A stretch of DNA of 64,000 nt from positions 4,869 to 68,868 of the IMG/VR virus record IMGVR_UViG_3300045996_000876; one strand, written 5' to 3'. Below, piece by piece: positions 16,235 to 49,068 of this stretch. Position 1 is the first letter of the stretch. Each line of letters begins with the position of its first letter. This stretch comes from a virus. The notes under the pieces were generated by a model. The model saw only the letters and a list, made by a program, of their open reading frames with translations, was not told where the DNA came from and did not search any database. Made by a program: the position numbers and the translations under genes.

Positions 16235-16524
16235 TGAACGTACTCACAGTCACGATGATCGGGACGCTGGGCCAGACCAAGATATGGCGACGGACGGACT
16301 CTATGGGAGAACGGATGCTGTGTGTCCAGTTCCTTCCGTTGGGAGCTATGGAGTGGTCCAAGGCTCAAGAGGCGAACTGCCGTGAGCTCTCCGGGCGGAT
16401 AGGGGAGGTCATGGGAAAGATTCTGACCCGCTTGGAGGGGGAGAATGTGGGTAGGGCGGTGCCCATCCCGACCCAGCAAGCCTTGCTTAGATTCTTGGCG
16501 ACGTTGGTTGAAGGCGGGTTATAA
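16231..16524 (+). CDS. hypothetical protein
   Basis: Coupled ORF ending at repeat element 1. Confidence 0.5.
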   Translation: MMNVLTVTMIGTLGQTKIWRRTDSMGERMLCVQFLPLGAMEWSKAQEANCRELSGRIGEVMGKILTRLEGENVGRAVPIPTQQALLRFLATLVEGGL

Positions 16525-16752
16525 CTGGGTGGTTAGGTAGGCGATCCCGGAGCTATCACTTGTCGAAAAGGTGCTCTCTCTTTCTTAAAATCTCTCCCTC
16601 GCGTACGTATAGAAACTCTCTCTTTAGCTGATCTTATTTAGATAGATAGATAGATAGATATAGAGAGAATGAGTAGGTTAGTGAGAATATTATAGAGCAC
16701 CTTTTCGTCATGTGATAGCTCCGGGAATGCTTAGTTAAATAGTGGTTATATA
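16516..16752. repeat. palindromic element copy 1: 32-bp inverted arms around an AT-rich (TAGA)5 core
   Basis: Arms 16546-16577 and 16694-16725 (2 mismatches); (TAGA)5 at 16639-16658; homologous to 48831-49068. Confidence 0.92.
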
Positions 16753-16762
16753 GGAGACTCAA

Positions 16763-17440
16763 ATGCGACGCACCAAGGTCGGTCAGAAGTTCGCGGACGC
16801 CAAGGCTGTGCTGGAAGGAGTCCAGGATGCTGAGGCCAAAGCCAAGCGGGAGCGGGAACGGAAGGCAGATTGGGATGACGCCGATGACATGGCGTTGTAC
16901 AAGAACAGCGTGGCGGCAGAAGCTCGGGACCGCTTGCTGAACAAGCTCGTTGGGCGGCTGCGGGTATGCCCCGTATGTAAGGAGGTCCGACCGGAGCGGC
17001 GGTCATGGCTCGTGAACCGATTGGCGACCAAGGCGATCTGCCGGGCGTGCTTTGACTCTATTAAGCGTGCGCCAGCCAGACAGGAAGCCTTGCTGGAGAA
17101 GCTGAGGGCTATTGCTGGTGCTTCACCGGTGGTGAGCCCGCCTATGTTTGAGCTGGTGAGCCGGTTCGTTGTGAAGGGGAGCGTGGTGAGCGATGTAAGA
17201 AGGCGGCTTGGCCTCAACCAGAGCCAGCTGGCGAGGATGATGGGGTGGTCGAATGTCTACCAGAAGTACATCGAAGAAGGGAGGGTGAAGACTGTCTCCA
17301 GGGAGGTCGCTACCAAGATGGGGATAGTTTTCTTTGAGCTTGGCGTGTTGTTCGAACGGTCGAATGGTGGTGATGGAGGGTTGATCGCTTCGATTCTCGC
17401 GGAACGGATTGAGATGCGTCAATCTGAGGTCAAAGAATAA
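16763..17440 (+). CDS. Zn-ribbon plus Xre-type HTH DNA-binding protein
   Basis: CPVC...CRAC; VRRRLGLNQSQLARMMGWS..YIEEG. Confidence 0.75.
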   Translation: MRRTKVGQKFADAKAVLEGVQDAEAKAKRERERKADWDDADDMALYKNSVAAEARDRLLNKLVGRLRVCPVCKEVRPERRSWLVNRLATKAICRACFDSIKRAPARQEALLEKLRAIAGASPVVSPPMFELVSRFVVKGSVVSDVRRRLGLNQSQLARMMGWSNVYQKYIEEGRVKTVSREVATKMGIVFFELGVLFERSNGGDGGLIASILAERIEMRQSEVKE

Positions 17441-17468
17441 CTGGGAAACGATGGGTAGAAAATTCCGC

Positions 17469-17497
17469 TTGACTTGACGGTTGAGTAGAGCTAAGCT
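17469..17497 (+). promoter_or_regulatory. sigma70-type promoter for the packaging/structural operon
   Basis: TTGACT-17 nt-TAAGCT. Confidence 0.65.
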
Positions 17498-17525
17498 TTC
17501 CTGGCGAAGCTGCTACCACGACACT

Positions 17526-17567
17526 AAGCTCCCGCTGCTGAGACTGAGGCAGTTGGGAGCTTTTGTT
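17526..17567 (+). terminator. promoter-proximal intrinsic terminator / attenuator
   Basis: AAGCTCCC..GCTGC/GCAGT..GGGAGCTT followed by TTGTT. Confidence 0.65.
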
Positions 17568-17614
17568 ATGTATGGACTGAACTATAGTTTGAGCTGTACC
17601 TGAGGTCACCAGAT

Positions 17615-18184
17615 GTGCCTGACAAACATGACCCACTGACCGGAAAGTTCACGACGGCTGTTGACCCCACGGATGGTCAGGCAGGGTCCACTCCATTCCT
17701 CGCATCAGCCTTACAAGAGGCGGAGAAGGTGATGGAGGAAACGCAGGAGCTAATTGCCCCAACTCCGCTGTCACCAGTAATCAATACCGCCACTGGGACC
17801 ATCACCGAGCGAGGCAACAACGGTCGGTTCCTTCCCGGCTCCAAGCCATTACCCACAGCAATCCTAGCGTCCAAGAAGGCAGCCAAACACCGAGCAGTCT
17901 TGCTGGCCTCCGTCACGGCGGAGGATGTCCAAGAGGTAACACTGGCGCTGATCCAGAAGGCTAAGTCAGGCCACCTACCCGCCATTGTGGAGTTCTTCAA
18001 CCGGACCGTCGGGAAGCCTTTGGAGGCAGACGTACTGGAACGGCTCTCCCTCCTGGAAGCTACGGTGAGGGCGGCTGCCAATGGACAAGAAGCAGGAGCG
18101 GGAGAGCAAACAACGGGAACTGGAGTGGAAGCGCTACCGTCAGGCGAAGGTCAAGTGGCGGCAAACGGTGAAACACGCGCGTAA
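17615..18184 (+). CDS. probable terminase small subunit
   Basis: RGNNGRFLPG motif; AKSGHLPAI...RTVGKP; position upstream of TerL. Confidence 0.6.
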   Translation: MPDKHDPLTGKFTTAVDPTDGQAGSTPFLASALQEAEKVMEETQELIAPTPLSPVINTATGTITERGNNGRFLPGSKPLPTAILASKKAAKHRAVLLASVTAEDVQEVTLALIQKAKSGHLPAIVEFFNRTVGKPLEADVLERLSLLEATVRAAANGQEAGAGEQTTGTGVEALPSGEGQVAANGETRA

Positions 18185-18217
18185 GTATCGAAAGACCCGA
18201 CGTTCTGTGAGGTTCTG

Positions 18218-18403
18218 ATGACCAAGCTACTCAACAACATAGCGGCTTTCTTCATGGCCATCGCTCAGGCGTTCTATAAGGCGGCTCCAAACAAGGGCGA
18301 GACCTATGGCACTGCGACGTTCAGCGACCTCCTATATATTGGGTTGGTCCTGTTCGCGGCTCTCTACGTCGTTGGCGTCACGGCTCTGGCCATCATCAAG
18401 TAA
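18218..18403 (+). CDS. small membrane protein
   Basis: GAGG RBS; C-terminal hydrophobic helix. Confidence 0.55.
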   Translation: MTKLLNNIAAFFMAIAQAFYKAAPNKGETYGTATFSDLLYIGLVLFAALYVVGVTALAIIK

Positions 18404-18503
18404 CGACCCTTGGCGGTGAAGCGGTTCGACTCCTGCCCCGACTTCTTGTGAGTTGGGTCCATGTAGGTATGGTAACGGGTTCAACTCCCGTAATCGTTAC
18501 TTG
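18397..18503 (+). ncRNA. tRNA-like element with two T-arm-like hairpins
   Basis: CAAGTAACGA/TCGTTACTTG closing stem; GCGG-TTCGACT-CCTGC; CCCGACT-7 nt-AGTTGGG; ACGGG-TTCAACT-CCCGT. Confidence 0.55.
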
Positions 18504-18517
18504 GCTGGTGGCTTGAG

Positions 18518-19999
18518 ATGGGGTACCTGGAGCGTATAGCCCAACTGGAGAAGCTGAACGCCCAAGCGCGTATCCTTGGACCCAATCCAACGACGGACCT
18601 GAGAGCTACGGCTGACCGCTTCCTGCGTCAGTTCCGAGCCATTGTCGGACTCGATAGCCTTGCTGGTCCATACGACCTTCTGTCGAAGCGTTGTAAGGCA
18701 ATGACGCTCCATCCCAAGCAGCGTCTGCTGTGGGAGTGCTTGGCCCGCTTCGTCTGCGTGCCGGCTGGCCGCCGCTCGGGCAAGACAGAGCGAGCGAAGC
18801 GGAGGTTGATCCAGTGCGCTGTGGAGGAGCGGGAGTACGATGACGCGTGGTTCATCGCGTCTGCCCCTACGCTCCAGCAAGCCAAGCGTATCTTCTGGGC
18901 GGACTTACTGCGACTCGCTCCTCCGAAGCTCGTGACCAACATCTCCAAGTCTGGCGAGCCATCCATAACGTTCTACAACGGAGCGGAAGTAACTGTTATG
19001 GGCATGGAAGTACCGGAGCGTGCCGAAGGTCGGCCACTCAACGGTATCGTGCTCGATGAATACGGGAATATGAAGGAGCACGTCTGGACCAACCACGTGC
19101 GTCCCGCGTTGACAGACCGCCAGGGCTGGGCGATGTTCACGGGAGTTCCCGAAGGTCGCAACCATTACTATGAGCTGTGTCAGGACGCGAAGCTAGACAC
19201 GACGGGCCAATGGGCCCTGTTCACTTGGACCACTGAGGAGGTTCTACCGCTCTATCTGGGAGCCGAAGAAGCGGCGGTTGAGTTAGCGTCCGCCCGCGCG
19301 TCGATGGATGACCTGACGTACGCCCAAGAGTACCTGGCCAGCTTCGTTACGTTCGAAGGGCTGGCGTACTATACCTTTGGTGACCATAACGTCCGGGACT
19401 CGCTCCCCTATAGGCCTGAGTCCGACTTGATTGTATGCTTCGACTTCAACGTGGCTCCTGGCGTGGCTGTCTTCTGTCAAGACGGCGGGAACGGTCAGAC
19501 CTACGCCATTGGCGAGGTCCACATACCGCGGAACTCTAACACGCCGCGTGTGTGCCGAAAGATCGAGGAAATGTGGGGCAAACGACACAAAGGTCGTGTG
19601 TTGTGCTATGGGGACGCAACGGGCGGGAGCGGCGGCACCGCGAAGGTAGATGGCTCCGACTGGAGCTTGATCAAGCAGTACCTGAGGCCTGTGTTTGGCG
19701 ACAAGCTCCGGTTCCGAGTGGACCAGAGCAACCCGCTGGAGCGAGTGCGTGTCAACGCGGTCAACAGCCGGTGTAAGTCCGCTGATGGCCAAGTACGCTT
19801 GCTGGTCTCCAAGTCGGGATGTCCCAACCTGATCAAAGACTTTGAAGGCGTGCGGGTCATCGAAGGGTCCGCTGGCGACATCGACAAAGACGCAGACCCA
19901 AAGCTGACCCACTTAACGGACGCCATCGGGTATTACATAGAGAAATGTTTCCCAGTCCAGACCGGGTATATGACGCAACGACAGGAGCAGGTGATCTAA
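18518..19999 (+). CDS. terL: terminase large subunit
   Basis: AGRRSGKT Walker A; IVLDE Walker B; GVPEG; FDFN nuclease motif; HLTDAIGY. Confidence 0.95.
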   Translation: MGYLERIAQLEKLNAQARILGPNPTTDLRATADRFLRQFRAIVGLDSLAGPYDLLSKRCKAMTLHPKQRLLWECLARFVCVPAGRRSGKTERAKRRLIQCAVEEREYDDAWFIASAPTLQQAKRIFWADLLRLAPPKLVTNISKSGEPSITFYNGAEVTVMGMEVPERAEGRPLNGIVLDEYGNMKEHVWTNHVRPALTDRQGWAMFTGVPEGRNHYYELCQDAKLDTTGQWALFTWTTEEVLPLYLGAEEAAVELASARASMDDLTYAQEYLASFVTFEGLAYYTFGDHNVRDSLPYRPESDLIVCFDFNVAPGVAVFCQDGGNGQTYAIGEVHIPRNSNTPRVCRKIEEMWGKRHKGRVLCYGDATGGSGGTAKVDGSDWSLIKQYLRPVFGDKLRFRVDQSNPLERVRVNAVNSRCKSADGQVRLLVSKSGCPNLIKDFEGVRVIEGSAGDIDKDADPKLTHLTDAIGYYIEKCFPVQTGYMTQRQEQVI

Positions 20000-20370
20000 T
20001 GGCCAAGCATCGCGTTAAGCTACACGATGGGGTTACAACCCTCTCCGACCGCGATATCACCTACATGGTGGACAAGGCGCTGAACGCGATTGGCCACGGC
20101 TTCTACGTCGTGATCTACAAGCAGGCTCAACGGCGCGGGCGACATTCATGGTGGATCCTCAATGGCTCGAATAGCAAGACCCTTTCCACCAGCGAGACCT
20201 ACAGCAGCTACCGCAAATGCCTCAAGACTGCGGCTAAAGTCGCTGTGGCTCTCAATTGTAACCTCTACGTTCACGACCTCCGGGCAGAAGCTTGGGAGCG
20301 AGCCGGCAAGCGACGTTGGCGGGCCGGGAAGGGAACGCTGCTCATCAAACATGGTGTCGCAGTTAAGTGA
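19999..20370 (+). CDS. basic protein with a YegP/DUF1508-like motif
   Basis: WWILNGSNSKTLSTSETYSSYRKC resembles the DUF1508 pattern; start overlaps the terL stop. Confidence 0.55.
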   Translation: MAKHRVKLHDGVTTLSDRDITYMVDKALNAIGHGFYVVIYKQAQRRGRHSWWILNGSNSKTLSTSETYSSYRKCLKTAAKVAVALNCNLYVHDLRAEAWERAGKRRWRAGKGTLLIKHGVAVK

Positions 20371-20650
20371 GGCCCAGGCCCACCAACGCTGCGTGACGCC
20401 GCTCGGAAGGCCAAGGGTACGCTGATGGCGCCGTCGTCTTTGCCTGCCGACAGGCTGCCTTGACCGTATCCGGAAGTGGTGAATGTGGAACTTCCCTCCG
20501 GGGTAGATTCGCCAGACCACGAAGTTTGGGTCACCACTTCCTGGCCCTATCAAGGGAGCAGGCAATGCGATCACCTTGGCTTGTTCTCATAGAGGAGCCA
20601 TCAGGGCTGACGCGATCCCTCATCGAGCTAGCCTTGCTGGTCCACCCACG
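20371..20650 (+). ncRNA. candidate large pseudoknotted ncRNA
   Basis: Nested stems GCTCG/CGAGC, GCCAAGG/CCTTGGC, TTGCCTGC/GCAGGCAA, CCTTGA/TCAAGG, GGAAGTGGTGA/TCACCACTTCC, plus a crossing CTGATGGC/GCCATCAG pair. Confidence 0.6.
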
Positions 20651-20678
20651 GCACCCCTTATTCTCTTGGAGACATACA

Positions 20679-20957
20679 ATGGGCGATAACGTCCAAGACC
20701 TCGTGCGCGACGTAATGAACAGCAAGTCTGCTCTGGAAGCGGAGCGGACCTCCATAGCGAAGGCGGAGGCGGATAAGGTCAACACCATCAGCCAGCTCAA
20801 CGCCCAGTTGGAAGCTCGCATCAAGGCGCTGACCGAAGCGAACGCCAAGCAGATGGATGCTCTGATCAAGTCGCTCAAGGAGCGGGAAGCGGCTCTGGAG
20901 ACCCAAGCCAAGCTCCACGCGGAGCGGGTTGCGCAGCTGATGGCGGCTCTGAGCTAA
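20679..20957 (+). CDS. coiled-coil protein
   Basis: GGAG RBS before ATG 20679; heptad pattern. Confidence 0.65.
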   Translation: MGDNVQDLVRDVMNSKSALEAERTSIAKAEADKVNTISQLNAQLEARIKALTEANAKQMDALIKSLKEREAALETQAKLHAERVAQLMAALS

Positions 20958-20999
20958 GCTAAGCTGGAACTGACGGCGGGAACTGACCAAGAGGTAGCG

Positions 21000-21281
21000 A
21001 TGGACGCGAAAGCAGGCAACCAGGATGTGGTCGAATGGACTCGCATCACGCTGTACCTCACCTCTGGTCAGACCATCGAGCCGTTTTATGTTGAGGACGG
21101 AGCCCAGCTGAAGAAGGCTCAGGACGTTCTGGACGACGCAGTTCCCGGTTGTATCTTCGGGTACCGCGCCCGCCCGCTCATCCAGACGGTCCGTATAGTC
21201 GTCAACCCACTCCACCTGACTTGTATTGATGCGGAGCGTTGCCCGCACCTGAAATACTATCCGAGTGAGCCCCAACCATAA
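21000..21281 (+). CDS. hypothetical protein
   Basis: GAGGT RBS. Confidence 0.55.
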   Translation: MDAKAGNQDVVEWTRITLYLTSGQTIEPFYVEDGAQLKKAQDVLDDAVPGCIFGYRARPLIQTVRIVVNPLHLTCIDAERCPHLKYYPSEPQP

Positions 21282-21291
21282 CGGAGACACG

Positions 21292-21558
21292 ATGCACTAC
21301 CGTAACGGACGCGAAGCGAAGAATGGCGACAAGATTGTCCAGCTGGCGATGAATGGCTCAGTGGTCCAAGCGGTTGGTACGCTCATCAACGCCACGCCCG
21401 GGAACGATCACTGTAATGGTGAGATCATCATCACCGGCAATAGCAACTACGGTCCGGCCATTATCGTCGGCGCATGCCTGTGCGACTGCCTTCACGTCGA
21501 TGACCTGGCCGTGATCCTCACGGCGAATGGATTGGGCAAACGTCCGTCCGGGAAGTAA
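21292..21558 (+). CDS. hypothetical phage protein
   Basis: GGAG RBS; MHYRNGREAKNGD start. Confidence 0.65.
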   Translation: MHYRNGREAKNGDKIVQLAMNGSVVQAVGTLINATPGNDHCNGEIIITGNSNYGPAIIVGACLCDCLHVDDLAVILTANGLGKRPSGK

Positions 21559-21561
21559 GCC

Positions 21562-22368
21562 ATGACACCACAGCAGCGAATGAACGGGGAGATACTCGGG
21601 CGGCTCTTTGGTCTCACGCCGTCGGAGGAGACGAAGCAGCTGTGGTTGGACTGGAAAGACGGGAGACCCTGGAACGTTACTGCGTGGTGTGCCGGTATCG
21701 ACCTCACGGGCATCTCATGCGTCGGTCAGAACATGGCCCTGATCGCTCCGCGTACGGTCGTGTGGGCCAACCATACCCAGAACCAAGGTGCTCCCGTCTA
21801 CTTCGCGGGCAAAGACGGCGTGCGACACGAGCGGAGGTTGGTCAAGAACGCGTACATGGGCGTCGATACGTGCGTATCCTTGCTGGACTCTCCGCTGCCC
21901 AAGACCGTCACGCCGTTCCGTCTGCCACCTATGAACTTGGGTTGGGAGCGGTGTTTGCTCTTGGCGACCAATCGCTATAAGTGGGCAGGCTTGGAATGGG
22001 GCGGTGCTTGGCAGCCTTCCGCCCTACAGCTAGCGGGGTTGGGTGTCGAGTTCCCGCCCGATTGGAACCTGTTCCATTGGCGGACGTTCCCTGAGGGTGG
22101 CGACTCCGGAGCGACGATTGGCCCCATCATCGATGGCGAGTTCTTGCTGGGGACGTTCTACTCCACGACAACTGCCGGACCGAACATGGGACGGCTCGCG
22201 AGTCGGGTGAACACCGCGATCATCAACGACCTTGGCGGCGATCCTAAGACAGACACTGCGGAGGTCTGGCAGCCCTATAGCGTGACTGACGTGAACCGCG
22301 ACGGGATGACGGACTCTGTAGACATCAATGTTCTCGCGGCGAATTGGCAGAAGCAAACGAGACGCTGA
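21562..22368 (+). CDS. trypsin-like serine protease with a C-terminal dockerin-like motif
   Basis: ALIAPRTVVWANH (His), DTCV (Asp), GGDSG (Ser); DVNRDGMTDSVDINVLAANW. Confidence 0.7.
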   Translation: MTPQQRMNGEILGRLFGLTPSEETKQLWLDWKDGRPWNVTAWCAGIDLTGISCVGQNMALIAPRTVVWANHTQNQGAPVYFAGKDGVRHERRLVKNAYMGVDTCVSLLDSPLPKTVTPFRLPPMNLGWERCLLLATNRYKWAGLEWGGAWQPSALQLAGLGVEFPPDWNLFHWRTFPEGGDSGATIGPIIDGEFLLGTFYSTTTAGPNMGRLASRVNTAIINDLGGDPKTDTAEVWQPYSVTDVNRDGMTDSVDINVLAANWQKQTRR

Positions 22369-22525
22369 GATGTACGACTATAACAACTCAGATGACGACC
22401 GTACGGTTGGTTGCTTTGCGTTCGCTCTCTTTGCGACTGCGGTGTTCAGCGTCATTGGCGTTCTCCTGTACATCATCTACGGGCTGACCGTTCTGGTGAA
22501 CAACTTCAAGGTGGTGGATCCATGA
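22368..22525 (+). CDS. small membrane protein
   Basis: Hydrophobic stretch; coupled to both neighbours. Confidence 0.5.
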
Positions 22526-23481
22526 ATCGTATCGCACTTGCTATCGCACTGGCGACCGTTACGGCGGGCTGCGGCGGGTCATCCACCAAGGTCCGTGAGC
22601 TCGCTCCGGAAGTCCGGGCACAGACCCAGCTGACCCGCGAGATGGTCAGCCTCATTCGCCAGCAACAGGGTACCATCGAGCGGCTCATGGAGTCTGCGCC
22701 GCGAGCCGATACCCGGGTCAGCGAAGCTATTGTGATCAACTCCGCCATGGAGAAGAAGATCATCCAGGCCCAACAGCATGAGCTCCCTGAGATGAACATC
22801 TCTCCTCCGCTCGCCACCGCGCTCCGGTCCGATCTAGCCGATCAGCGGGTGATCCTCGATAACGCGAAAGAAGCCACCTCCGCGACTGCCTCCGCCGCAA
22901 CCCAGGCCGCTAGCCAAAACGCCGCAGCGGACGCGGTAGGGCAGCAAGCCGTGACAAAGGGTGAGCAGAACGAAGCAGCGGCGGAGAAGTCCGACAAAGC
23001 GGTACAAAAACTCCAGACGGAAAACGCGTCTCTGAAGGCGGAGGTCAAGAACGCCCAGAACAGCGACCTGTGGACGTGGTTCCTGATCTCTGGCGGCGCG
23101 ATTACGTTCGGGCTGTTCCTGGCCTTTGCGACGCCCATCAAGAAGTTCGGCTGGTATCTCGCCTTGCTGGGAGCGGTTGGCTGCTGCGTGACCTACTTCT
23201 TCATCACGGTGCTACAGTACCTCAAGTGGTTGATCATCGCTTCGATCTTTGGCGTGGGCATCTACGGATTCCTGCGGCTGACCGGGGCGCTGAAGGCGAC
23301 TGGCCAAGGCATTGAGGAGTTGAAGCATGACCCCGAAGCTCCGGATTCGCTGCTCCAGAAATATTTTGGCTCACACGGAACGGTCGGACGGTTCCACTGG
23401 CTCACGTCTGAAACGGAAGGTGTTATCAATTGGCTCCGTCGTAAGCTTGGCTCTGAGCCTGTTCGTACTGACAGCGTGTAG
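22522..23481 (+). CDS. lipoprotein with a coiled coil and C-terminal TM helices (spanin-like candidate)
   Basis: MNRIALAIALATVTAGC lipobox; helical middle region; about three hydrophobic segments near the C-terminus. Confidence 0.65.
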   Translation: MNRIALAIALATVTAGCGGSSTKVRELAPEVRAQTQLTREMVSLIRQQQGTIERLMESAPRADTRVSEAIVINSAMEKKIIQAQQHELPEMNISPPLATALRSDLADQRVILDNAKEATSATASAATQAASQNAAADAVGQQAVTKGEQNEAAAEKSDKAVQKLQTENASLKAEVKNAQNSDLWTWFLISGGAITFGLFLAFATPIKKFGWYLALLGAVGCCVTYFFITVLQYLKWLIIASIFGVGIYGFLRLTGALKATGQGIEELKHDPEAPDSLLQKYFGSHGTVGRFHWLTSETEGVINWLRRKLGSEPVRTDSV

Positions 23482-23579
23482 CGAGCTTGGGCTGGGCGGA
23501 AGTCCGATCATCTTCTTAGGGCGGGTAGCGGAAGGCAGCTTGTTTCCGGCTCCTCCCCGTCCCACCCAGGGCGATCCAG

Positions 23580-23831
23580 ATGATGAAATGTCGCGGCTCT
23601 CCGACATCGAAGAGTTCTACCAAATCCGCAGGCGGTACGAAGGCCAAGAGAGGTAAGCGTGGCCGTCCACCTGCGTGCTCAGAAGAGTACCTTGAAGCGT
23701 TGTTAAGCTTTCGCGAGTTCTGTCAATCCAAGGGGTGGAAGTGGAAGGGGAGTCTGATACAAGCTATCAAAGCCTTTATGAAGGCACATCAACGTTCAAC
23801 ACCCTCTGTGAAGGAACCAGACGATGTCTAG
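23580..23831 (+). CDS. small basic protein (AT-hook-like KRGRP)
   Basis: KRGKRGRPP; coupled to the next gene. Confidence 0.4.
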   Translation: MMKCRGSPTSKSSTKSAGGTKAKRGKRGRPPACSEEYLEALLSFREFCQSKGWKWKGSLIQAIKAFMKAHQRSTPSVKEPDDV

Positions 23832-24225
23832 CTCTTTGGGACAGCTCAACCTCGATGCGAGCGGGGTAACTGCCTTGGTCGGCGCTACAATGACAGCGAC
23901 CGTCACTGCAATGGTCCTGTTCTTGAAGTTCCTGTGGCCCAAGCTTAGTGGAAAGCTCAAGGCCAATGGCGAATCGAGCGAGTCAAACATCATCCCCGGA
24001 GACCAGATCATAGAAGCCTTCAAGGAGTTCCGGACGAAGCACCACCAGCTTCGGAACCGGGTTCAACGGCTCAACATGCGTATGGAATTAGCCGCCCAAG
24101 AACAACTCCACCAGAAAGCTCGCCAGGATGAGCAGGACCGGACGCTCAAAGAGCTATCCGAGACAATGACAGACGTACGGGACCGCGTGATCAAACTTTG
24201 TGCCGCCAACGGCGTGAAAGACTAG
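23824..24225 (+). CDS. single-TM coiled-coil protein (holin-like candidate)
   Basis: N-terminal TM segment followed by a coiled coil; immediately before the portal. Confidence 0.5.
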   Translation: MSSSLGQLNLDASGVTALVGATMTATVTAMVLFLKFLWPKLSGKLKANGESSESNIIPGDQIIEAFKEFRTKHHQLRNRVQRLNMRMELAAQEQLHQKARQDEQDRTLKELSETMTDVRDRVIKLCAANGVKD

Positions 24226-28367: not shown

Positions 28368-28372
28368 CCTGC

Positions 28373-28483
28373 GAGCGTGATGCTCAACGGATAGTTCTCC
28401 GGGCGCAGGTCTGAAGAGGGATTCTGAAGACTTGTACCTTGTCCCAGTGGTCTAGAGCGGGATGCTCCGCGAGCGTGATGCTC
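28373..28483 (+). promoter_or_regulatory. three GAGC-G(T/G)GAT-GCTC mini-hairpins in the capsid leader
   Basis: Copies at 28373-28385, 28455-28467 and 28471-28483. Confidence 0.55.
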
Positions 28484-28529
28484 GTGAAATCGTGTTTGAC
28501 AAAGTTTGTCTCGAACAAAGGAATGCCGT

Positions 28530-41650: not shown

Positions 41651-41653
41651 TCA

Positions 41654-42607
41654 ATGGGCTTCGATGAAGTTCAGTTTCCGGTTGATATCAGCTATGGAAG
41701 CAAGGGCGGACCTGGCTTCCGTACGGACATCATCATCAGCGACTCCGGGATGGAGGAGCGTATTGCGCGTTGGTCGAATGCCCGCCGCAAGTACAACGTC
41801 GCCTACGGCATCAAGTCTCCGGAGCAGGTTCAGTCCGTCATGGACTTCTATCTCGCACGTATGGGAGCAGCCAACGGCTTCCGTTACAAAGACTTCACCG
41901 ACTTCACGACAGCAAGCGATCACCGCTCTGCGCACGCGAACGATGATGTCTTGCTGGGAACCGGGAACGGGACAACGACCACGTTCCAACTGAAGAAGCT
42001 GTACACCAGCGGAGCGATCACGCGGACACGTAACATAACGAAGCCTGTCACCGGGACTACGTTGGTTGCGCTGGACGGCGTGAACCAGACGAGCGGGTGG
42101 TCAGTCGATACGTCCACGGGTATCGTCACCTTCAGCGTTGCGCCTACTCTGGGCGTAGCAGTCACGGCGGGTTGTCAGTTTGACGTACCGGTTCGCTTCG
42201 GTCAGGAGGTCGATGACGCGCTCTGGTTGACCATCGATGCCTTCTCTATCCGCTCCATACCGGATATCCCGTTGGTTGAGATCGTAGACTCACTGACGGT
42301 ATATGACCAACACTTCTACGGCGGAGCGTATGAGAAGGCGATCAGTGCCGATCACCAGATGACCCTCGCGGACGGGCGGGTTCAAGTCTTCAATCCGGGC
42401 GCTACGACCGGGCTATCTGTGAAGCTTCCCGACCCAACCAACATCGCTCCGGGCGGACCTATCTTCTTCATCCTGAACGAAGGGGCAGCGACCTTCGCGT
42501 TGAAGCAGTTTGACGGGACGCTGGTTGCGAATATCCCGTCCACCGGCGTGCTCCTAGTGTTTCTGTCCACGACCAACAACGTCAATAAAGTCTGGTATGG
42601 AATATGA
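41654..42607 (+). CDS. distal tail protein (DUF2460, GTA-like) with C-terminal extension
   Basis: FDEVQFPVDISYGSKGGP.FRTDI; FDVPVRF. Confidence 0.88.
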   Translation: MGFDEVQFPVDISYGSKGGPGFRTDIIISDSGMEERIARWSNARRKYNVAYGIKSPEQVQSVMDFYLARMGAANGFRYKDFTDFTTASDHRSAHANDDVLLGTGNGTTTTFQLKKLYTSGAITRTRNITKPVTGTTLVALDGVNQTSGWSVDTSTGIVTFSVAPTLGVAVTAGCQFDVPVRFGQEVDDALWLTIDAFSIRSIPDIPLVEIVDSLTVYDQHFYGGAYEKAISADHQMTLADGRVQVFNPGATTGLSVKLPDPTNIAPGGPIFFILNEGAATFALKQFDGTLVANIPSTGVLLVFLSTTNNVNKVWYGI

Positions 42608-44088
42608 TCAGTGAAGTCCTACACTACGGGAGAGCAGCCGCGCTTTCGCACGTAGGTGGAGTGGTCGGGTTGACCTCCGCCTTGCTGCGGGAATACCGGG
42701 TGATCAACCTTCCGAGCGGTACAACCAGCGTTCGGCTCCCGCCCGCAGGGGAGTTGCCGTTGGGCGGACCCATCGCGGTGTTGGTCAACCCTACCGGCTC
42801 CGCTATCCCGATTGTCTCCGTGAACGATACGGGCACCACGCTCGCGACGTTGACCGCGAACTCCCTGGCTATCGTTCTGCTCTCCGCGTATGACAGCGGG
42901 ATTCCGCAGGGCGGCAACTGGCGGTTCATGATCAAGGTAGCGGGCGTGAGCACGTTCACGCGAGCTTCCCGGGACGCAGTGACGTCGGAAGATGACCCCG
43001 AAGTTCCGACGATCACGTGCCAACGAGCGAAGTACAAGCTGACCAACTGCGCCGACGAAGATGAAGTAATCTTTACGGATAGCAACCTCACTCAGTTCGC
43101 AGGACTCATCGTCAAGCTCTATCCGACGGACCTGGACTGGGCGGATAAATGCTGGGAGGTTGAGCTGTGGGACGACATCTCCGATACGGAGCCAGTTCCC
43201 GTCTTTGTCTCCAAGACCAACGACATCGTGGACGTGTTCGACAACTGCTCCCACTGCCTAGCGGTGGACCCCAACAAGACTATCTCCTTTGAGATTGAAG
43301 ACTTGGCGACCAACGCGTTGATCACGCCGGTTGCCTACGGCTCGGTGGCTTCGTACCCGGGACCACTCACGGTTGCTGCCGGGTATGACGGTGACTTGAC
43401 GGGCTTGGATGAAGCGGTTGCCATCTACGGACCGGTGTTGTTCCGCTCGTTCAAGACAGGCGGAGCGTTGGACATCTACTCTACGCTGTTCCAAGTCTTT
43501 GCGACGGCTGCCGGTACTCTCTCTATCACCGGCTCGCATATCATGGGCTATACCAAGGTGTTCTTCCCGATCAAGAACGGGTTGATTGTTCCGTGGAATG
43601 AGACGGACAAATACGTCCAAGGGGTAGAACGGCATCTGACCGTCGCACGCGGTGATCTTATTGATATCGGCTTGCTGGTCGATCCGGCAGCCACCGGGAC
43701 TTACACGGACGCTACCCACTCCAGCGCAGGCACTACCGTATCGAGGTTGGAGCACGGGACTACCGCCAACGCAGCGGCCAAGGCGCGGGCGGGGCAGATA
43801 CTCAGTGCGGCTCTCAGCAAGACTCTCGTGAGCGGGAAGTTTGTACCGCACACGGTCCAGGTGTTCGCAGACCCGGGCGTGCCGTGGCGGTTCTCGAATA
43901 TCCCGACTTGGATGAGCATCACTCCACGCTCCGGTACGGGACCGGCTGTCGTAATCGTAGACGCCACTGCGGCTCCGACTCCCGCTGCGGAGACGTATAT
44001 CATGAAGTTCACCTGGACCGCTACAGTGATAGCGGAGCGGCGGCAGATCACAAAAGACTTCGTGTTCATCAACTCGTTTGGGTGCTGA
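42604..44088 (+). CDS. tail-associated protein
   Basis: Position in the tail tip; N-terminus resembles the C-terminal extension of the preceding gene. Confidence 0.65.
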   Translation: MISEVLHYGRAAALSHVGGVVGLTSALLREYRVINLPSGTTSVRLPPAGELPLGGPIAVLVNPTGSAIPIVSVNDTGTTLATLTANSLAIVLLSAYDSGIPQGGNWRFMIKVAGVSTFTRASRDAVTSEDDPEVPTITCQRAKYKLTNCADEDEVIFTDSNLTQFAGLIVKLYPTDLDWADKCWEVELWDDISDTEPVPVFVSKTNDIVDVFDNCSHCLAVDPNKTISFEIEDLATNALITPVAYGSVASYPGPLTVAAGYDGDLTGLDEAVAIYGPVLFRSFKTGGALDIYSTLFQVFATAAGTLSITGSHIMGYTKVFFPIKNGLIVPWNETDKYVQGVERHLTVARGDLIDIGLLVDPAATGTYTDATHSSAGTTVSRLEHGTTANAAAKARAGQILSAALSKTLVSGKFVPHTVQVFADPGVPWRFSNIPTWMSITPRSGTGPAVVIVDATAAPTPAAETYIMKFTWTATVIAERRQITKDFVFINSFGC

Positions 44089-44089
44089 T

Positions 44090-44959
44090 ATGACGCTACC
44101 CGTCAAACAATCGCTGATGTCGCTCCTGGACAGCTCAACGCGGTACCTCGCAACGCTCTGGAAGCTCGCGAGAACGGACGGCGTGACGCAGTACTTCACG
44201 GACCACGACGCAGCGTTGATCTTTGAAGGCCAGACGTACCTTCCCGCCTGCGGCTTCAACGCGTCAGCCCGTCAAAAGACGGGCGGGCTCAATCCGCAGA
44301 ACCTCGATATGGTAGGCTATATCGACAACGATGAGCTGGACCACGATGACCTCCGGGCTGGCCGGTTCCGCGAAGCGGAGGTGACGGAGTACGTGGTTGA
44401 CTTCCGCTACCCGTTCGCGGGCGCGATCATCACCAACACGTACTGGGTCACCGACGTAGCTTTCAGCGATGGCGTCTGGACTGCCTCTCTTGCTGGACTC
44501 TCGCGATGGCTCCAGCACGCGGTTGGAAAGGTCTACACGCGGAACTGCCGGCACATCTTCGGCGACTCGATGTGTAAGCTGAACACCGCTACGTTTACCA
44601 CGACTGGAACGGTGTCGCTTACCAACGCGTCAAGTCCACGCGCCGTCTTTGAGTCGGACTCTCCGGGCGTGATCAGCCTTGGTGCGAACTACTTCGCCAA
44701 CGGAAGTATCCACTGGCTCTCCGGATTGAACAACGGACTTCGGATGGAAGTGAAGGCATCGACCAACTGGGGCGAGTTCACGACGCAGCTGCCGCTTCCC
44801 TATGACGTGACGGTCGGAGACGTGTTCACCGTATACGCGGGCTGCGACAAGACGATGAACCAGTGTATAAACAAGTTCGATAACATGGTCAACTTCGGCG
44901 GCTTCCCGTTTGTACCCGGCACCGACCGTATGATCCAGTACCCGGATGCGAAGGTGTAA
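44090..44959 (+). CDS. baseplate hub protein (DUF2163/BR0599)
   Basis: RTDG...FTDHD; C...GD..C; GCDKT...C..KFDN..NFGGFP. Confidence 0.9.
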   Translation: MTLPVKQSLMSLLDSSTRYLATLWKLARTDGVTQYFTDHDAALIFEGQTYLPACGFNASARQKTGGLNPQNLDMVGYIDNDELDHDDLRAGRFREAEVTEYVVDFRYPFAGAIITNTYWVTDVAFSDGVWTASLAGLSRWLQHAVGKVYTRNCRHIFGDSMCKLNTATFTTTGTVSLTNASSPRAVFESDSPGVISLGANYFANGSIHWLSGLNNGLRMEVKASTNWGEFTTQLPLPYDVTVGDVFTVYAGCDKTMNQCINKFDNMVNFGGFPFVPGTDRMIQYPDAKV

Positions 44960-44960
44960 C

Positions 44961-45464
44961 GTGCCTACACGCCTAGACGTTATCGTGAAAGCTCGGGAGT
45001 ACCTGGGCACTCCCTATCACCACATCGGTCGGAAGAAGGGAATTGGCGTTGACTGTATTGGTCTCATCTCCGGAGTCGCCCAGGAACTCGGGATGACGTA
45101 CCACGACCTGAAGGTGTACTCTCAACGTCCGGACGGCGTGACGCTCCTCCGCGAATTCGATAAGTGTTTGACCCGCGTTCCGACGCACCAGCCCGGAGAT
45201 GTCTTGGTCTTCCGGTTCCGAAAGTTCGCGACTCACGCGGGTATCGTCACAGACTACGGGCTGATTCATACGTACGCAACGGTGGGTAAAGTCGTTGAGC
45301 ACGTCCTGGATGCGACCTGGGAACGTCGGATTGTTCAGGCTTATCGGTTCCCGGGTATCCAAGGCGACTGGGTGCCTTCTCCCGTCCCCAACTTTCGAAT
45401 CCCCGATGACTTTGAAGTCGAACAAGAACGCCGCAGACTCCAGCAAGGCGGCTGCTGTAACTGA
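44961..45464 (+). CDS. NlpC/P60 tail-associated cell-wall peptidase
   Basis: AREYLGTPYHH.G...GVDCIGL; PGDVL.F; HAGI. Confidence 0.9.
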   Translation: MPTRLDVIVKAREYLGTPYHHIGRKKGIGVDCIGLISGVAQELGMTYHDLKVYSQRPDGVTLLREFDKCLTRVPTHQPGDVLVFRFRKFATHAGIVTDYGLIHTYATVGKVVEHVLDATWERRIVQAYRFPGIQGDWVPSPVPNFRIPDDFEVEQERRRLQQGGCCN

Positions 45465-45473
45465 GGAAACGCT

Positions 45474-47840
45474 ATGGCAATGTTAGCACTAGGGCTGGTG
45501 GGCGGAATGATTGGCGGAGCTATCGGTGGCGGCTCCGCACTCGCCATCGCTGGACTCTCCCTCACGGGCGCTTCGGTAGGCTTCGCGGTAGGCGCTACCG
45601 TCGGCAGCGTGCTGGACTCTGCGTATGTCTTCCCGGCCATCTTCGGAGGGCAAAAGGGATTCGCCGGACCTCGCATTGACGACCTTCAGCTACAAGTCGC
45701 GAGCGAGGGCAGCCCGGTCAACTACTGCCTTGGACCGGAGAACCGGGTAGCGGGTACGATCATCTGGATGACGGACCTGATTGAGACAAAGAAGAAACAG
45801 AGCGGCGGAGGAGGTGGAGGCGGCGGCAAAGGTGGAGGCGGAGGCGGCGGCAGCGTTACCACGTACACCTACGCAGTCCACGTCGCTGTGGGCGTCTGCG
45901 AAGGGCCAATCACGGAGATAGACAAAATCTGGGCGGATGGAAAGCTCATCTATGACGTCCATACGCTATCGGTCTCCACCCACGTTGATCGAGTCACCGC
46001 ATACAAAGGCTTCGTAGGCACGGGGCAGATGCCCGACCCGCTGATTGAAGCATTCGAGGGAGCGGGCAACGTTCCGGCGTGGCGTGGGATCGCCTACGTC
46101 ATGTTTGAGAATCTCCAGTTGGCGGACTTCGGCAACCGCATCCCGCAATTCACGTTCCTGGTCCGGGCTCAGCCTGCGCTAGGCGTGCGGGACGCCATCG
46201 CTAGCTTGCTGGTACGAAGTGGCCTGACCTCCGACCAGTACGACACGACGCAGGTGACGGGGTGCCTTCGCGGTTACAGCTGGTCAGGCCCGCAGTCGGG
46301 TCAGGCGGTAGTGACGCCGATTATGAATGCCTTCGCGGTTCGCTGTCAGGAGGTCAATGGACAACTAGTCTTCTTCAATCGCGGCGATGAAGACGAAGTG
46401 GCGGTGGACTCCGATGACTTGGGCGCTCGCGAGTACAACGAAGGTAGCAAGCCTGCGTTCCATATCACCGACGGAAGCGGCTTGACTATTCCCGCTCAAG
46501 TCCAAGTCAACTTCTTGGACCCGGATAACGACCACCAGCGCGGCTCCGTCAACGAACGTCGCATCAACGTCCCCACGGAGTCGATCAACCAGATTGACGT
46601 TCCCTTCGTTCTGACGCAACGCCAGGCCAAGGAGATAGCGAAGCGGCAGCTGTATATGCCGTGGGATGAACGTCGCACCGTTACTCTTTCCCTCCCGCCC
46701 AAGTACCTCTACTTGGCGGAGCAAGACATCCTCACGCTCTCCTATAAGGGTCACAACTACAAGGTCCGTATCTTGGAGTTGGAGCGTGGAGCGAACTTCC
46801 TGCTCAACATCAAGGGAGTTATCCAAGAGGGAGATACGACCACGGCGGAAGGCGAGCAGGATGATCGGACGGTTGTGAGCGAGGTTCTGTATGAACCGCC
46901 GTCTCTGGTCGTCTACCCGCTGGACCTCCCGCCGCTCCGCACTGATGACTCCGACTCCGCTGGATTCTACTTGGCGGTGACGACTCCCAACTCCACCGAG
47001 CGGTTCCGCGGCGCGATCCTGTTCTCATCGGACGAGTCCGAAGGGAACTTCATCCAGACCGGGCTAGTGCCCGACGTAGCGACGGCAGGAACAACCGATA
47101 CAGTCTTGGGCGTTGCGTCCGTAGGCGTGTGGGACCTTATCAACACCGTGGACGTGACGCTCACCACCGGCTCGTTATCCAGCAAGACTCCTTCTGAAGT
47201 TCTTGCTGGGGGCAACATCGCGTATATCAATGGTGAGATACTAGGCTTCCAAGAGGCGGAGCTAATCGGCACCAACCAGTACCGTTTGAGCAAGCTTCTT
47301 CGCGGGCTGCGTGATACTGAAGACTTCATCTCACTCCATACGCTCAACGACCCGTTTGTCCTCTTGGACGAGTCGGGGTTGACGTTCCACCGGCTGAACC
47401 AGTCGGCCATCGAGACGTACCGGACGCTGCGCATTGTCCCCGTAGGATCGGTGGTGGAGGATACCCCAACGACTTCCGTGTACATCCGGGCGGCAACGCT
47501 CCGTCCGTTCGCTCCTGCGATGCTACGGATGAACAAGGATTACGGAACAGGAACAATCGAGCTTACCTGGTCGCACCGTACGCGCGATCTGGCTCGCGTT
47601 CTCTCGCTCAACGTCCCCAACGCGGACCAAGAGGTCTATACCGTGGCGATCCTCAAGGACAACCGCGTGAAGCGGACCGTAACGGTGACGGGCGCTCAGA
47701 GCTATGATTGGACATCCTCTGATCGTACTTCGGACGGCGTGACCGTGGACGTTGGACTGACGTTCAAGGTGACTCAGATATCGGCGACGGTTGGACCGGG
47801 TAGAACTGCGGTCAGCCGTGAATTTGACTTCGATCTATAA
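45474..47840 (+). CDS. central tail / tip attachment protein (GTA megatron-like)
   Basis: GPRIDDL...SEG; IWADGK; PAWRGIAY..FENLQLADFGNRIP; LLRGLRDTE. Confidence 0.88.
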   Translation: MAMLALGLVGGMIGGAIGGGSALAIAGLSLTGASVGFAVGATVGSVLDSAYVFPAIFGGQKGFAGPRIDDLQLQVASEGSPVNYCLGPENRVAGTIIWMTDLIETKKKQSGGGGGGGGKGGGGGGGSVTTYTYAVHVAVGVCEGPITEIDKIWADGKLIYDVHTLSVSTHVDRVTAYKGFVGTGQMPDPLIEAFEGAGNVPAWRGIAYVMFENLQLADFGNRIPQFTFLVRAQPALGVRDAIASLLVRSGLTSDQYDTTQVTGCLRGYSWSGPQSGQAVVTPIMNAFAVRCQEVNGQLVFFNRGDEDEVAVDSDDLGAREYNEGSKPAFHITDGSGLTIPAQVQVNFLDPDNDHQRGSVNERRINVPTESINQIDVPFVLTQRQAKEIAKRQLYMPWDERRTVTLSLPPKYLYLAEQDILTLSYKGHNYKVRILELERGANFLLNIKGVIQEGDTTTAEGEQDDRTVVSEVLYEPPSLVVYPLDLPPLRTDDSDSAGFYLAVTTPNSTERFRGAILFSSDESEGNFIQTGLVPDVATAGTTDTVLGVASVGVWDLINTVDVTLTTGSLSSKTPSEVLAGGNIAYINGEILGFQEAELIGTNQYRLSKLLRGLRDTEDFISLHTLNDPFVLLDESGLTFHRLNQSAIETYRTLRIVPVGSVVEDTPTTSVYIRAATLRPFAPAMLRMNKDYGTGTIELTWSHRTRDLARVLSLNVPNADQEVYTVAILKDNRVKRTVTVTGAQSYDWTSSDRTSDGVTVDVGLTFKVTQISATVGPGRTAVSREFDFDL

Positions 47841-47852
47841 CAAGAGGGAACT

Positions 47853-48362
47853 ATGACCACAACCGCGAAGATTGGAATTGAGATGCTCGCTGAAGGGCAG
47901 TCGGGCGCGGAGATAACCGTCAACGAAGGCTTGGTGCTTCTGGACGCCATGGTCCAGTGTACGGTTCTGGAGGTTGATCTCAACGCTCCGCCCGGTTCTC
48001 CGACGAATGGTGACGTGTACTTCCTGTACGGCGGTTCCGCGTCTGGCGCCTGGTCGGGCCACGACAACGAGTTTGCCGTGTACTTCGATGGATGGCGGTT
48101 CATCGCTCCCGGAGAAGGCTGGTTGCTGTTCAACGAAGAAGATGGGAAGCTGTACAAGTGGACCGCAGGCGACGGTCTCACGGCTCTCTCGAAAGACGTT
48201 GACGCGAACCTGACCGACAGCACGACCGGGACTCCCGGAGGTACGATCAGCAACGTTGGCGGCTCCTTCAACCAGACGACGTTGAACAACAACCTTGCGT
48301 CCATTGTCGCTTCCATCAACAACTTGAAGAGTAAGCTACGTGATGCCGGAATCATCAACTAA
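47853..48362 (+). CDS. DUF2793-like tail fibre-associated protein
   Basis: Q...EITVNEGL..LD; PPGSPTNGD.Y; GAWSGHD; W.F.APGEGW. Confidence 0.85.
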   Translation: MTTTAKIGIEMLAEGQSGAEITVNEGLVLLDAMVQCTVLEVDLNAPPGSPTNGDVYFLYGGSASGAWSGHDNEFAVYFDGWRFIAPGEGWLLFNEEDGKLYKWTAGDGLTALSKDVDANLTDSTTGTPGGTISNVGGSFNQTTLNNNLASIVASINNLKSKLRDAGIIN

Positions 48363-48843
48363 AATCGTGTTCACGGCGGAGCAGATCGCCATGAGAGTGA
48401 GGGAGCTAGCGGACCGGATGAAGGGAGAGCGGCCCATAGCGCTCGTCCCCATTCTGACCGGGGCAATCACCTTCACGGCGGACCTGCTCCGCCATCTCCC
48501 AGCAAGCACGGTAGTATCGCCGATGCTTATGGACCCTTACCACCGTGGGATGGTCCTGGCGGAACCGGACCTGTTGTTGCTACTGAACCGGGACGTATGG
48601 GTGGTGGATAACTCCATGGCCAGCGGGGTGACCCTGTATGGAGCGGTCAAGGCTATCCGACGGCACCGTACAATCGTGGACCTGAAGACCGTGGTGTTGT
48701 ACCGCTTGCTGGAGGGTCACCCCATGCCGATAGAACCGACCTTGTGCGGCTTCTTCCACCGCCCCACCGGGCGTCTCATCGGGTACGGTCAAGACCAGCA
48801 AGGAACTGGCCGTGGTCTGAGGGATATCGTGGGTTATAACTAG
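48340..48843 (+). CDS. HPRT-like phosphoribosyltransferase with a divergent PRPP loop
   Basis: EQIAMRVRELA, ILTGAITFTADLLR, VVDNSMASGVTL, IGYGQD...RGLRDI. Confidence 0.75.
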   Translation: MMPESSTKIVFTAEQIAMRVRELADRMKGERPIALVPILTGAITFTADLLRHLPASTVVSPMLMDPYHRGMVLAEPDLLLLLNRDVWVVDNSMASGVTLYGAVKAIRRHRTIVDLKTVVLYRLLEGHPMPIEPTLCGFFHRPTGRLIGYGQDQQGTGRGLRDIVGYN

Positions 48844-49068
48844 GCGATTAACTAGGCAATCCCGGAGCTATCAAAGTGCGTAAACCTGCTCTCTATTATT
48901 CTCTCGCTCTGTATACCGTATCATCTATATTACTCTTTATTTCATCTTATTTAGATAGATAGATAGATAGATATAGTAAGGGAGAGAGTAGGTAATTGAG
49001 AATATTATAGAGCACCTTTACGACAAGTGATAGCTCCGGGTTCGCCTACTAAACTATGTGGTTATATA
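48831..49068. repeat. palindromic element copy 2
   Basis: CCCGGAGCTATCA (48861) to TGATAGCTCCGGG (49040); (TAGA)5 at 48952-48971; same orientation and same 180-bp span as copy 1. Confidence 0.92.

Follow-up and report, generated by a model that had tools for sequence, protein, structure and literature searches.

What are two similar intergenic elements doing at the two ends of the virion block of a phage whose genes all lie on the same strand? The question is raised by the IMG/VR virus record IMGVR_UViG_3300045996_000876, a 68,868-bp contig from a tailed, uncultured phage from soil that has every gene on the plus strand. Record positions 4869-68868 were analysed. This whole stretch of 64,000 bp is referred to as the window, and positions are those of the window unless marked as record positions. 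An earlier reading of the letters alone (the original prediction) had reported two 180-bp inverted-repeat elements, 32,315 bp apart and sharing a 33-nt core that includes (TAGA)5, and had proposed that they are origins of replication or recombination sites. The coordinates, spans, spacing and core reported there were all reproduced on recheck. The elements are probably a lineage-conserved pair of cis-acting sites that act as duplex DNA, with phage-specific arms around a very meltable centre. Among the functions considered, we rank paired origin-like unwinding elements first, as a tentative reading that falls somewhat short of an even chance.

Anatomy of the paired elements

The element is present twice, and no more, in the whole 68,868-bp record (Table 1). 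Copy 1, at the entry of the virion block, is between the 3' end of the open reading frame (ORF) at 16231-16524 and a gene encoding a protein with a Zn ribbon and a helix-turn-helix (HTH) domain. Copy 2, at the exit, is between the end of the ORF at 48340-48843, the gene that closes the virion block, and the promoter region of an SNF2 helicase gene. The similarity of the copies stretches outward, from GGGTTATAAC through GGTTATATAG, and exceeds the 180-bp span first reported. The mean column identity of copy 1 and copy 2 is 82 % in one alignment, and 191 of 246 columns (78 %) are identical in another.

A 13-mer, CCCGGAGCTATCA, is found at the left of each copy and, inverted, at the right, the pair spanning 180 bp in both copies with 32,315 bp from the start of one copy to the start of the other. 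When one mismatch or fewer is allowed, the 13-mer has four matches in the window, all of them at the arms, and none of 100 shuffled sequences reached four. With up to three mismatches allowed, the nearest site in the window that is not at an arm has two. This 13-mer is not palindromic. Outside the 13-mers, TAAC recurs with a weak periodicity of 11-12 bp. The crosswise relationship of the arms that had been claimed is real, as the left arm of copy 1 matches the right arm of copy 2 over 41 nt at 95 % (record 21405-21445 versus 53917-53877 on the minus strand). Overall, the arms are 84 % alike crosswise versus 78 % when compared directly. The terminal inverted repeats within a copy are 33 nt at 94 % identity in copy 1 and 51 nt at 78 % in copy 2.

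The centres between the arms have a GC content of 0.28-0.33 versus 0.58 genome-wide. The reported strand asymmetry was also confirmed, the left half being pyrimidine-rich (purine fraction 0.26-0.31) and the right half purine-rich (0.69-0.71). Duplex stability was calculated as nearest-neighbour free energy across the whole genome, in windows of 50, 100 and 150 bp. At all three sizes, the two centres rank 1 and 2 genome-wide for instability (z 5.2-6.8), and the next least stable segments, which include the early promoters, do not exceed z 3.7 (at 100 bp, 5.8 and 6.8 versus 3.7). Both centres therefore have the properties looked for in the unwinding element of an origin, namely AT-richness and unusually low duplex stability.

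The differences between the copies are not spread evenly. The longest identical run in the alignment is the 33-nt core, with further runs of 23 and 15 nt, and this clustering of mismatches is significant in 20,000 shuffles for the longest run (P=0.0017) and for the top three runs together (P=0.0001). The copies have equal numbers of repeats in (TAGA)5. They also share a 154-nt gap between their 13-mers, despite the left part of copy 2 being 2 nt shorter and its right part 2 nt longer. In a four-arm alignment, the right arms are 84 % identical to one another and the left arms 64 %, and left versus right comparisons give 55-62 %. Palindromy is strong just in the outer ~60 nt of the arms, about seven changes in the left arm of copy 2 are uncompensated in its right arm, and only 4 of the 65 consensus pairs covary. 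The clustered differences, the constant spacing and the uncompensated arm changes therefore suggest selection on blocks of duplex-DNA sequence and on the spacing between them, not on a hairpin, and the pattern points to recognition by a protein rather than to an RNA or DNA hairpin.

The same comparison bears on a structured RNA, in which a long hairpin in the transcript would be a site of RNase III processing or would protect 3' ends between operons. Both copies form much more stable folds than shuffled sequences do (copy 1, -97.5 kcal/mol, z -8.8; copy 2, -82.6 kcal/mol, z -6.4), any transcription of the HTH gene that starts upstream necessarily passes through copy 1, and a hairpin would work in either orientation. 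However, the limited palindromy, the low identity of left to right arms relative to that between the right arms, and the uncompensated changes are not those of a maintained stem, and the -2/+2 length changes hold the spacing and shift the hairpin register. Neither element matches a family in Rfam 15, where the single match, to a miRNA precursor, is a chance one at 28 bits versus a gathering score of 140. We consider an RNA function quite improbable.

Pairs at the same boundaries in related phages

Absence from relatives had been named beforehand as the outcome that would tell against the prediction. Ten related IMG/VR genomes, found via the helicase, were compared, namely G000 (this phage), G001, G002, G005-G008 and G012-G014. 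Fragments G003 and G004, which are without boundary 1, were outside the test, as were G009, G010, G011 and G015. The intergenic region after a conserved endonuclease gene, which precedes a conserved Zn-ribbon/XRE-type HTH gene, was used as the Smith-Waterman query against the rest of the same genome. In six of the ten genomes, the best partner was found at the tail-to-replication boundary, with scores of 245 (G000), 74 (G001), 80 (G002), 155 (G006), 405 (G007) and 97 (G013) versus shuffled maxima of 36-48. Hence, six of ten carry a pair of their own at the same two boundaries, and the prediction withstood this check.

The sequences of the pairs are particular to each phage. Identity within a genome ranges from 52 % (G001) to 94 % (G007), and no similarity of the elements across phages was found by blastn against all loci, with G000 versus G003 or G004 giving z of 2 or less. 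The arm motif TTGTGCACAA occurs exactly four times in G001 (shuffle mean 0.03) and GTAAAGNNNCTTTA exactly four times in G002 (shuffle mean 0.005), in each case only at the arms, and both motifs are palindromic. Short tandem repeats are found in the centres of G000, G002, G006 and G007, and not in those of G001 and G013. The pairs are also the two least stable genome segments in G002 (z 5.3 and 5.05) and G007 (z 6.0 and 6.0). The copies are separated by 46-49 % of the circle in the three genomes judged complete. The orientation of the pair is direct in G000, G006, G007 and G013. The G001 pair is mixed, with an inverted (crosswise) match of its outer flanks and a direct match of one inner flank, and in G002 the repeat core is on opposite strands in the two copies. 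Spaced inverted repeats scoring 13 or more were found in 5 of 35 helicase-upstream windows versus 1 of 267 control windows; the 35 were hand-picked from 78 helicase loci as having at least 3 kb upstream and ~34 % identity or more.

Two of the fragments have an element upstream of the SNF2 helicase. In G003 (L032, 2657-2834), there is a 32-nt perfect inverted repeat spanning 178 bp, and in G004 (L025, 2521-2725) a 22-nt inverted repeat spanning 205 bp. Each of the G003 arms holds TTAA-N7-TTAAC, the consensus of the CtrA box (by eye). A CtrA-box reading fits the arms of G003 by eye and not those of G000; the part of PMC9437464, on CtrA, that was available is silent on elements of this type. The motif TAACTGG, common to G000, G003 and G005, is absent from most of the other elements and was dropped. 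In G007 (L211-L213), only two weak homologues of G000 virion genes are found between the elements, and outside the pair 14 non-virion genes are conserved, with identities of 25-50 %. It appears that G007 has had its virion module replaced.

Further copies were sought more widely. Copy 1 with its flanks had no blastn match in GenBank phages. The exact 26-nt paired-arm and 22-nt right-arm patterns, searched for exact matches only, are absent from viral_contigs and genome_contigs. Matches to a 15-mer in viral_contigs were 19 single sites without an inverted partner, and were judged to be due to chance. The helicase and the HTH protein, used as single-protein locus queries, gave no match in viral_contigs. 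Among the matches listed for the helicase alignment in metagenome_contigs, nearly all were distant relatives. Paired elements of this kind are not described in the main texts of the papers searched, and the available part of a paper on the distantly related Mesyanzhinovviridae (PMC11946847) does not mention palindromes, inverted repeats, MCM, or AT-rich or intergenic elements.

Table 1. Positions of the elements, their parts and neighbouring features in the window
Feature	Position	Strand	Remarks
Element copy 1	16516-16753 (record 21384-21621)	.	~237 bp; outer motif, arms and AT-rich centre
Element copy 2	48831-49070 (record 53699-53937)	.	Same orientation as copy 1
Arm 13-mer CCCGGAGCTATCA, copy 1 left	16546-16558	+	Motif scan
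Arm 13-mer CCCGGAGCTATCA, copy 1 right, inverted	16713-16725	-	Motif scan
Arm 13-mer CCCGGAGCTATCA, copy 2 left	48861-48873	+	Motif scan
Arm 13-mer CCCGGAGCTATCA, copy 2 right, inverted	49028-49040	-	Motif scan
Identical 33-nt core with (TAGA)5, copy 1	16631-16663	.	Inside least stable 100 bp, 16604-16703 (z 5.8)
Identical 33-nt core with (TAGA)5, copy 2	48944-48976	.	Inside the genome's least stable 100 bp, 48912-49011 (z 6.8)
Inward sigma-70-like site ATCACA-16-TATAAT, copy 1 right arm	16689-16716	-	Promoter scan
Zn-ribbon and XRE-type HTH protein, 225 aa	16763-17440	+	Candidate arm binder
Putative small terminase	17615-18184		~0.9 kb downstream of copy 1
Large terminase	18518-19999		1.8 kb downstream of copy 1
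Sigma-70-like SNF2 promoter TTGCCA-18-TAGAGT	49155-49184	+	~115 bp downstream of copy 2, separate from the element
SNF2-family helicase	49239-51338	+	First gene of the replication block
DnaG-type primase fused to MCM-like helicase, 964 aa	53394-56288	+	Pfam, feature search, Foldseek

Possible functions of the elements

If the elements are origins, the invariant 13-mers and the blocks that flank them would be inverted protein sites that clamp the ~115-bp AT-rich, strand-asymmetric centre. A phage protein would bind the arms, the candidates being the Zn-ribbon/XRE-type HTH protein and the primase-MCM itself. Opening of the (TAGA)5 centre by negative supercoiling would let the DnaG-primase/MCM-like helicase be loaded there and prime synthesis, with replication presumably starting at this point. 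We place this reading first because the anatomy is that of a classical origin, the phage has an MCM-type helicase and a primase of its own, the orientation of the copies is free, no promoter is shared, and copy 2, which is directly upstream of the replication block, stands at its head. The variable orientation of the copies together with the lack of a shared sigma-70 promoter fits a symmetric function at the level of DNA.

A number of points weigh against origins. Origin, binding and melting functions are what we infer from the sequence. Cumulative GC skew rises steadily without a step at 16.5 kb or 48.9 kb, although the test is a weak one, because a genome that has its genes all on the same strand hides signals of this kind. 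Both copies are exactly at transcription-unit boundaries, and there is no obvious need for a second origin. The HTH neighbour, going by its predicted fold, looks like transcription regulators and not like known initiators. There was no convincing pair in four of the ten genomes (G005, G008, G012, which is 67 % complete, and G014). Nor was a pair seen in MW202657.1 or G014 (n=2), in which the virion genes run on the opposite strand, and this counts against origins because the need for one should not depend on how the genes are oriented. For MW202657.1, comparison of the ten least stable segments revealed early-region repeats only and no pair. Thus, of the earlier proposal of candidate origins, the inverted sites around an unstable AT-rich centre stand, a supporting skew step is missing, and a regulatory reading is almost equally good.

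In the regulatory reading, which we place a close second and at less than an even chance, the HTH protein would bind both arms of each element, perhaps looping the bendable AT-rich centre. It would thereby regulate its own gene and, at the two ends of the virion block, insulate or time the block against read-through. In each of the six genomes with a pair (G000, G001, G002, G006, G007 and G013), the HTH gene either overlaps the boundary-1 element or begins within ~30 nt of it, and the predicted fold of the gene product resembles dimeric operator-binding regulators. The arm motifs of G001 and G002 are palindromic, as in operators, the elements are exactly at the module boundaries of co-oriented genomes with none seen in the two divergent-module genomes (n=2), and the boundary-1 region of G014 has inverted repeats around a TTGACA-type promoter (by eye). 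However, a sigma-70 promoter scan of 12 elements across the phages revealed no common site. The inward TATAAT of the copy 1 right arm is retained in copy 2 at 49004-49009, and is found in G000 only and not in the elements of the relatives. The SNF2 promoter is separate, ~100-200 bp downstream. No intrinsic terminator (GC-rich hairpin plus T run) was found in 16200-17000 or 48500-49400, and as ordinary GC-rich hairpin terminators are used elsewhere in the genome (by eye), termination does not require an element of 237 bp. The promoters of the phage are also much more stable than the centres, and the 13-mer of G000 is not a palindrome. If the elements do mark boundaries, they would represent an unusual, portable insulation of a 32-kb late operon in a genome with all genes co-oriented.

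Recombination at the edges of the virion module, by which the ~32-kb block or the stretch enclosed by the arms would be swapped, inverted or excised, would explain why the block between the G007 pair is nearly devoid of G000 virion homologues with 14 genes outside it conserved, and why relatives with the block on the opposite strand exist (MW202657.1 and G014). The crosswise outer flanks of G001, the opposite-strand cores of G002 and the higher crosswise than direct similarity of the G000 arms are in keeping with it. We nevertheless consider it improbable, as no recombinase family was found in 51 ORFs by Pfam or in 37 by PHROGs, the left edge of non-homology in G007 is after the HTH gene and not at the element, recombination between direct repeats would delete half of the genome, and the Logan contigs compared showed no joints, just cross-mapping of copy 2. 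An invertible promoter switch would have the necessary repeats, but again a recombinase family is missing among the Pfam and PHROGs matches of the ORFs scanned, a scan that begins after the first 4.9 kb of the record.

A selfish insertion resembling a miniature inverted-repeat transposable element (MITE) and present twice by happenstance is very improbable. The terminal inverted repeats, the size of 180-240 bp and AT-richness relative to the genome are those of a MITE, and both upstream ORFs stop within the left end of the element. However, target sites are not duplicated, and immediately beyond the repeats the two copies have conserved flanks, GGGT... and ...TAG. The exact 26- and 22-nt signatures are not dispersed in viral_contigs or genome_contigs, the pattern of mismatches is constrained, and six phages have their pairs at the same two positions in the gene order. 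Packaging sites (pac or cos-like) for the terminase seem just as remote. Copy 1 is suitably placed, ~0.9 kb upstream of the putative small terminase gene and 1.8 kb upstream of the large one, but the HTH gene intervenes, copy 2 is distant from the packaging genes, and a second site would yield two packaging series.

A wider form of the origin reading is clearly unlikely as a whole. It holds that, in a lineage of uncultured bacterial siphophages, a primase-fused MCM-like helicase is loaded at paired phage-specific origins at both ends of the virion block, nearly opposite one another on the circle, with a fast co-evolving Zn-ribbon/XRE-type HTH protein, whose gene adjoins one of the origins, as the specificity factor for origin binding, and that the elements double as recombination seams of the virion module. 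If true, this would be loading of MCM independent of the origin recognition complex (ORC) in a bacterial virus. We know of no account of how phage-encoded MCM-like helicases find and open DNA. This lineage would offer a compact candidate answer, with a ~240-bp pair, a site/centre/site anatomy, six natural arm variants and a conserved small DNA-binding protein encoded next to it. Binding specificity, melting and helicase loading could be approached with synthetic DNA and recombinant proteins, without a cultured host.

Comparison with known systems

Archaeal chromosomal origins (oriC) have inverted origin recognition boxes around an unwinding element, next to orc1/cdc6. The phage elements are similar in that inverted sites flank an AT-rich centre, there is an MCM-type helicase to load and the gene for a DNA-binding protein is adjacent. 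They differ in that no Orc1/Cdc6 homologue was found, in the bacterial-type promoters and ribosome-binding sites, and in the fusion of the MCM-like domain to a DnaG-type primase. The archaeal framing of the original prediction is therefore not retained, the predicted gene-expression signals of this phage (promoters, Shine-Dalgarno sites and terminators) all being bacterial in type. In the looping systems of gal and ara, two identical sites 110-210 bp apart are separated by a bendable AT-rich stretch and the dimeric HTH regulator is encoded nearby. Unlike these, the phage elements have no shared internal promoter, are present as two full copies at module edges and have extreme duplex instability. 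MITEs are of similar size, with terminal inverted repeats and an intergenic position, but the phage has neither target duplications nor dispersed copies, and the gene-order position is conserved in six phages.

Among viruses, the available part of PMC5737612 describes binding of the replisome organiser G38P of the tailed phage SPP1 to oriL and oriR, which are duplicated phage origins. As here, the two regions are similar and distant, and repeated boxes are adjacent to an AT-rich unwinding element. According to the same text, the boxes of SPP1 are directly repeated next to the unwinding element, and the initiator gene contains oriL. The elements studied here instead have a centre with an inverted arm on each side, and the two copies occupy gaps between genes where the virion block begins and ends. 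Nothing homologous to G38P was seen. Herpes simplex virus 1 (HSV-1) has several redundant origins, one OriL and two OriS. As set out in PMC12543377, their boxes are inverted on either side of a length-sensitive AT-rich spacer, and unwinding allows the arms to fold into a hairpin. HSV-1 is an animal virus with much smaller sites, and the binder is UL9, a superfamily 2 (SF2) helicase of known specificity. The phage elements, in contrast, have candidate binders only, a ~115-bp centre with a tetranucleotide repeat and an MCM-like replicative helicase.

The neighbouring proteins

The original prediction had singled out the Zn-ribbon/HTH gene after copy 1 as encoding a possible binding protein. Its place as a conserved neighbour of the element in the six pair-bearing genomes is borne out, and its product remains a candidate for binding the arms. 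Homologues were found in G001, G002, G005, G006, G007, G012 and G013, and there was no tblastn match in GenBank phages at E<=1e-3. The protein has weak Pfam matches to HTH_31 and to MqsA-like proteins. Its structure model has a mean predicted local distance difference test score (pLDDT) of 76, and the fold matches are weak (E ~0.02-0.2) and all to HTH regulators, the closest being DdrO, the controller (C-) proteins of restriction-modification systems, SinR and the P22 c2 repressor.

The 964-aa protein begins with a DnaG zinc ribbon and a Toprim domain, and its C-terminal part is MCM-like in predicted structure, as had been proposed. Residues 320-964 (the C-terminal 645) match PF00493 with E 0.021 and 14.4 bits, below the Pfam cut-off of 23.3. 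For this part, the best feature score in the ESM Atlas was 0.98, in a cluster that is 92 % PF00493, and all of the Foldseek PDB matches listed are MCM subunits (E 5e-10 to 3e-8), with template modelling scores (TM-scores) of 0.16-0.37 and a pLDDT below 50 in the ATPase core of the model. Homologues of the primase-MCM with 47-52 % identity are found in six related uncultured phages, and the closest cultured relatives of the MCM part, at ~28 %, are in Microbacterium phages. Some Logan contigs have helicases at 51-58 % identity. The Orc1/Cdc6 origin-recognition family was not among the Pfam matches for the 51 ORFs scanned (E<=0.001).

Genome setting

Though the record is classed as 'linear', its ends (window 63774-64000 and record 1-227) overlap by 227 bp, inside a coding region, at 99.6 % identity with one mismatch. 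Because of this overlap, the genome map is taken to be circular, at ~68,641 bp. The copies divide this circle 47 %/53 %, in line with the earlier suggestion that they are roughly opposite one another. Sixteen listed Logan contig pieces, from two soil metagenome DNA runs of which one is possibly the source sample, do not differ from the window, and the sequence of the elements is therefore not peculiar to this assembly. No RNA run was listed among those with the phage sequence. Loose contig ends at 16516, 16558 and 16725 carry the flanks of copy 2, and are due to cross-mapping and not to rearrangement; the other loose ends listed are away from the element. No rearranged junctions (joints) are listed for the contigs of the two runs.

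The virion block (~17.6-48.8 kb) includes genes for the large terminase, portal, capsid, tape measure and tail. The portal relatives infect Proteobacteria, at <41 % identity. The replication and nucleotide block begins at 49.2 kb with the SNF2 helicase, followed by the primase-helicase, a thymidylate-synthase-like gene, a dCMP deaminase and a family A polymerase, and the replication genes extend over 49239-61117. The sole GenBank relative of the replication genes is the uncultured record MW202657.1. Past the circular join are early genes, a thymidine-hypermodification cluster, a sigma factor of the extracytoplasmic function (ECF) type and other genes, up to 16.5 kb. The cluster (5296-11099) encodes 5-hydroxymethyldeoxyuridine (5-hmdU) DNA kinase domains, an amino acid:DNA transferase, a pyridoxal phosphate (PLP) enzyme and a radical-SAM enzyme, and the thymidylate-synthase-like gene (57040-58074) and the dCMP deaminase (58555-59103) belong with it. 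The sigma factor (11368-11955) has a Sigma70 region 2 domain (E 9e-12).

By eye, no ORF is conserved in the elements, a 25-codon minus-strand ORF of copy 1 not being shared by copy 2. Early-region promoters of the form TTGCCT...TGGTATACT are repeated, with GGAGAT ribosome-binding sites, and the wider family TTGCCT/TTGACT...TGGTATACT, with a conserved downstream stretch, precedes small genes at record 1000-4300 and window 1018-1136 and 61387-61465. GC-rich hairpin terminators with a T run are seen in several gaps (by eye). Upstream of the small terminase gene (17441-17614), a strong hairpin that has a U-rich tail (17526-17567; -26.5 kcal/mol, z -4.0) lies downstream of TTGACT-17-TAAGCT, both recognized by eye and neither listed by a consensus scan of this gap. 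The layout recalls the lambda late promoter and terminator behind an upstream regulator gene. A tRNA match in Rfam at 4616-4747 (45.1 bits, model positions 1-71) extends over 132 nt, implying an insertion of ~60 nt, and ARAGORN did not predict a tRNA anywhere in the window. Two GGTTC(G/A)ACTCC stretches that resemble tRNA T-arms (by eye) are found at 18404-18517, in the gap that precedes the large terminase gene and has no Rfam match at E<=1. In the gap before the major capsid gene (28368-28505), the direct repeat GCGAGCGTGATGCTC is present twice (by eye).

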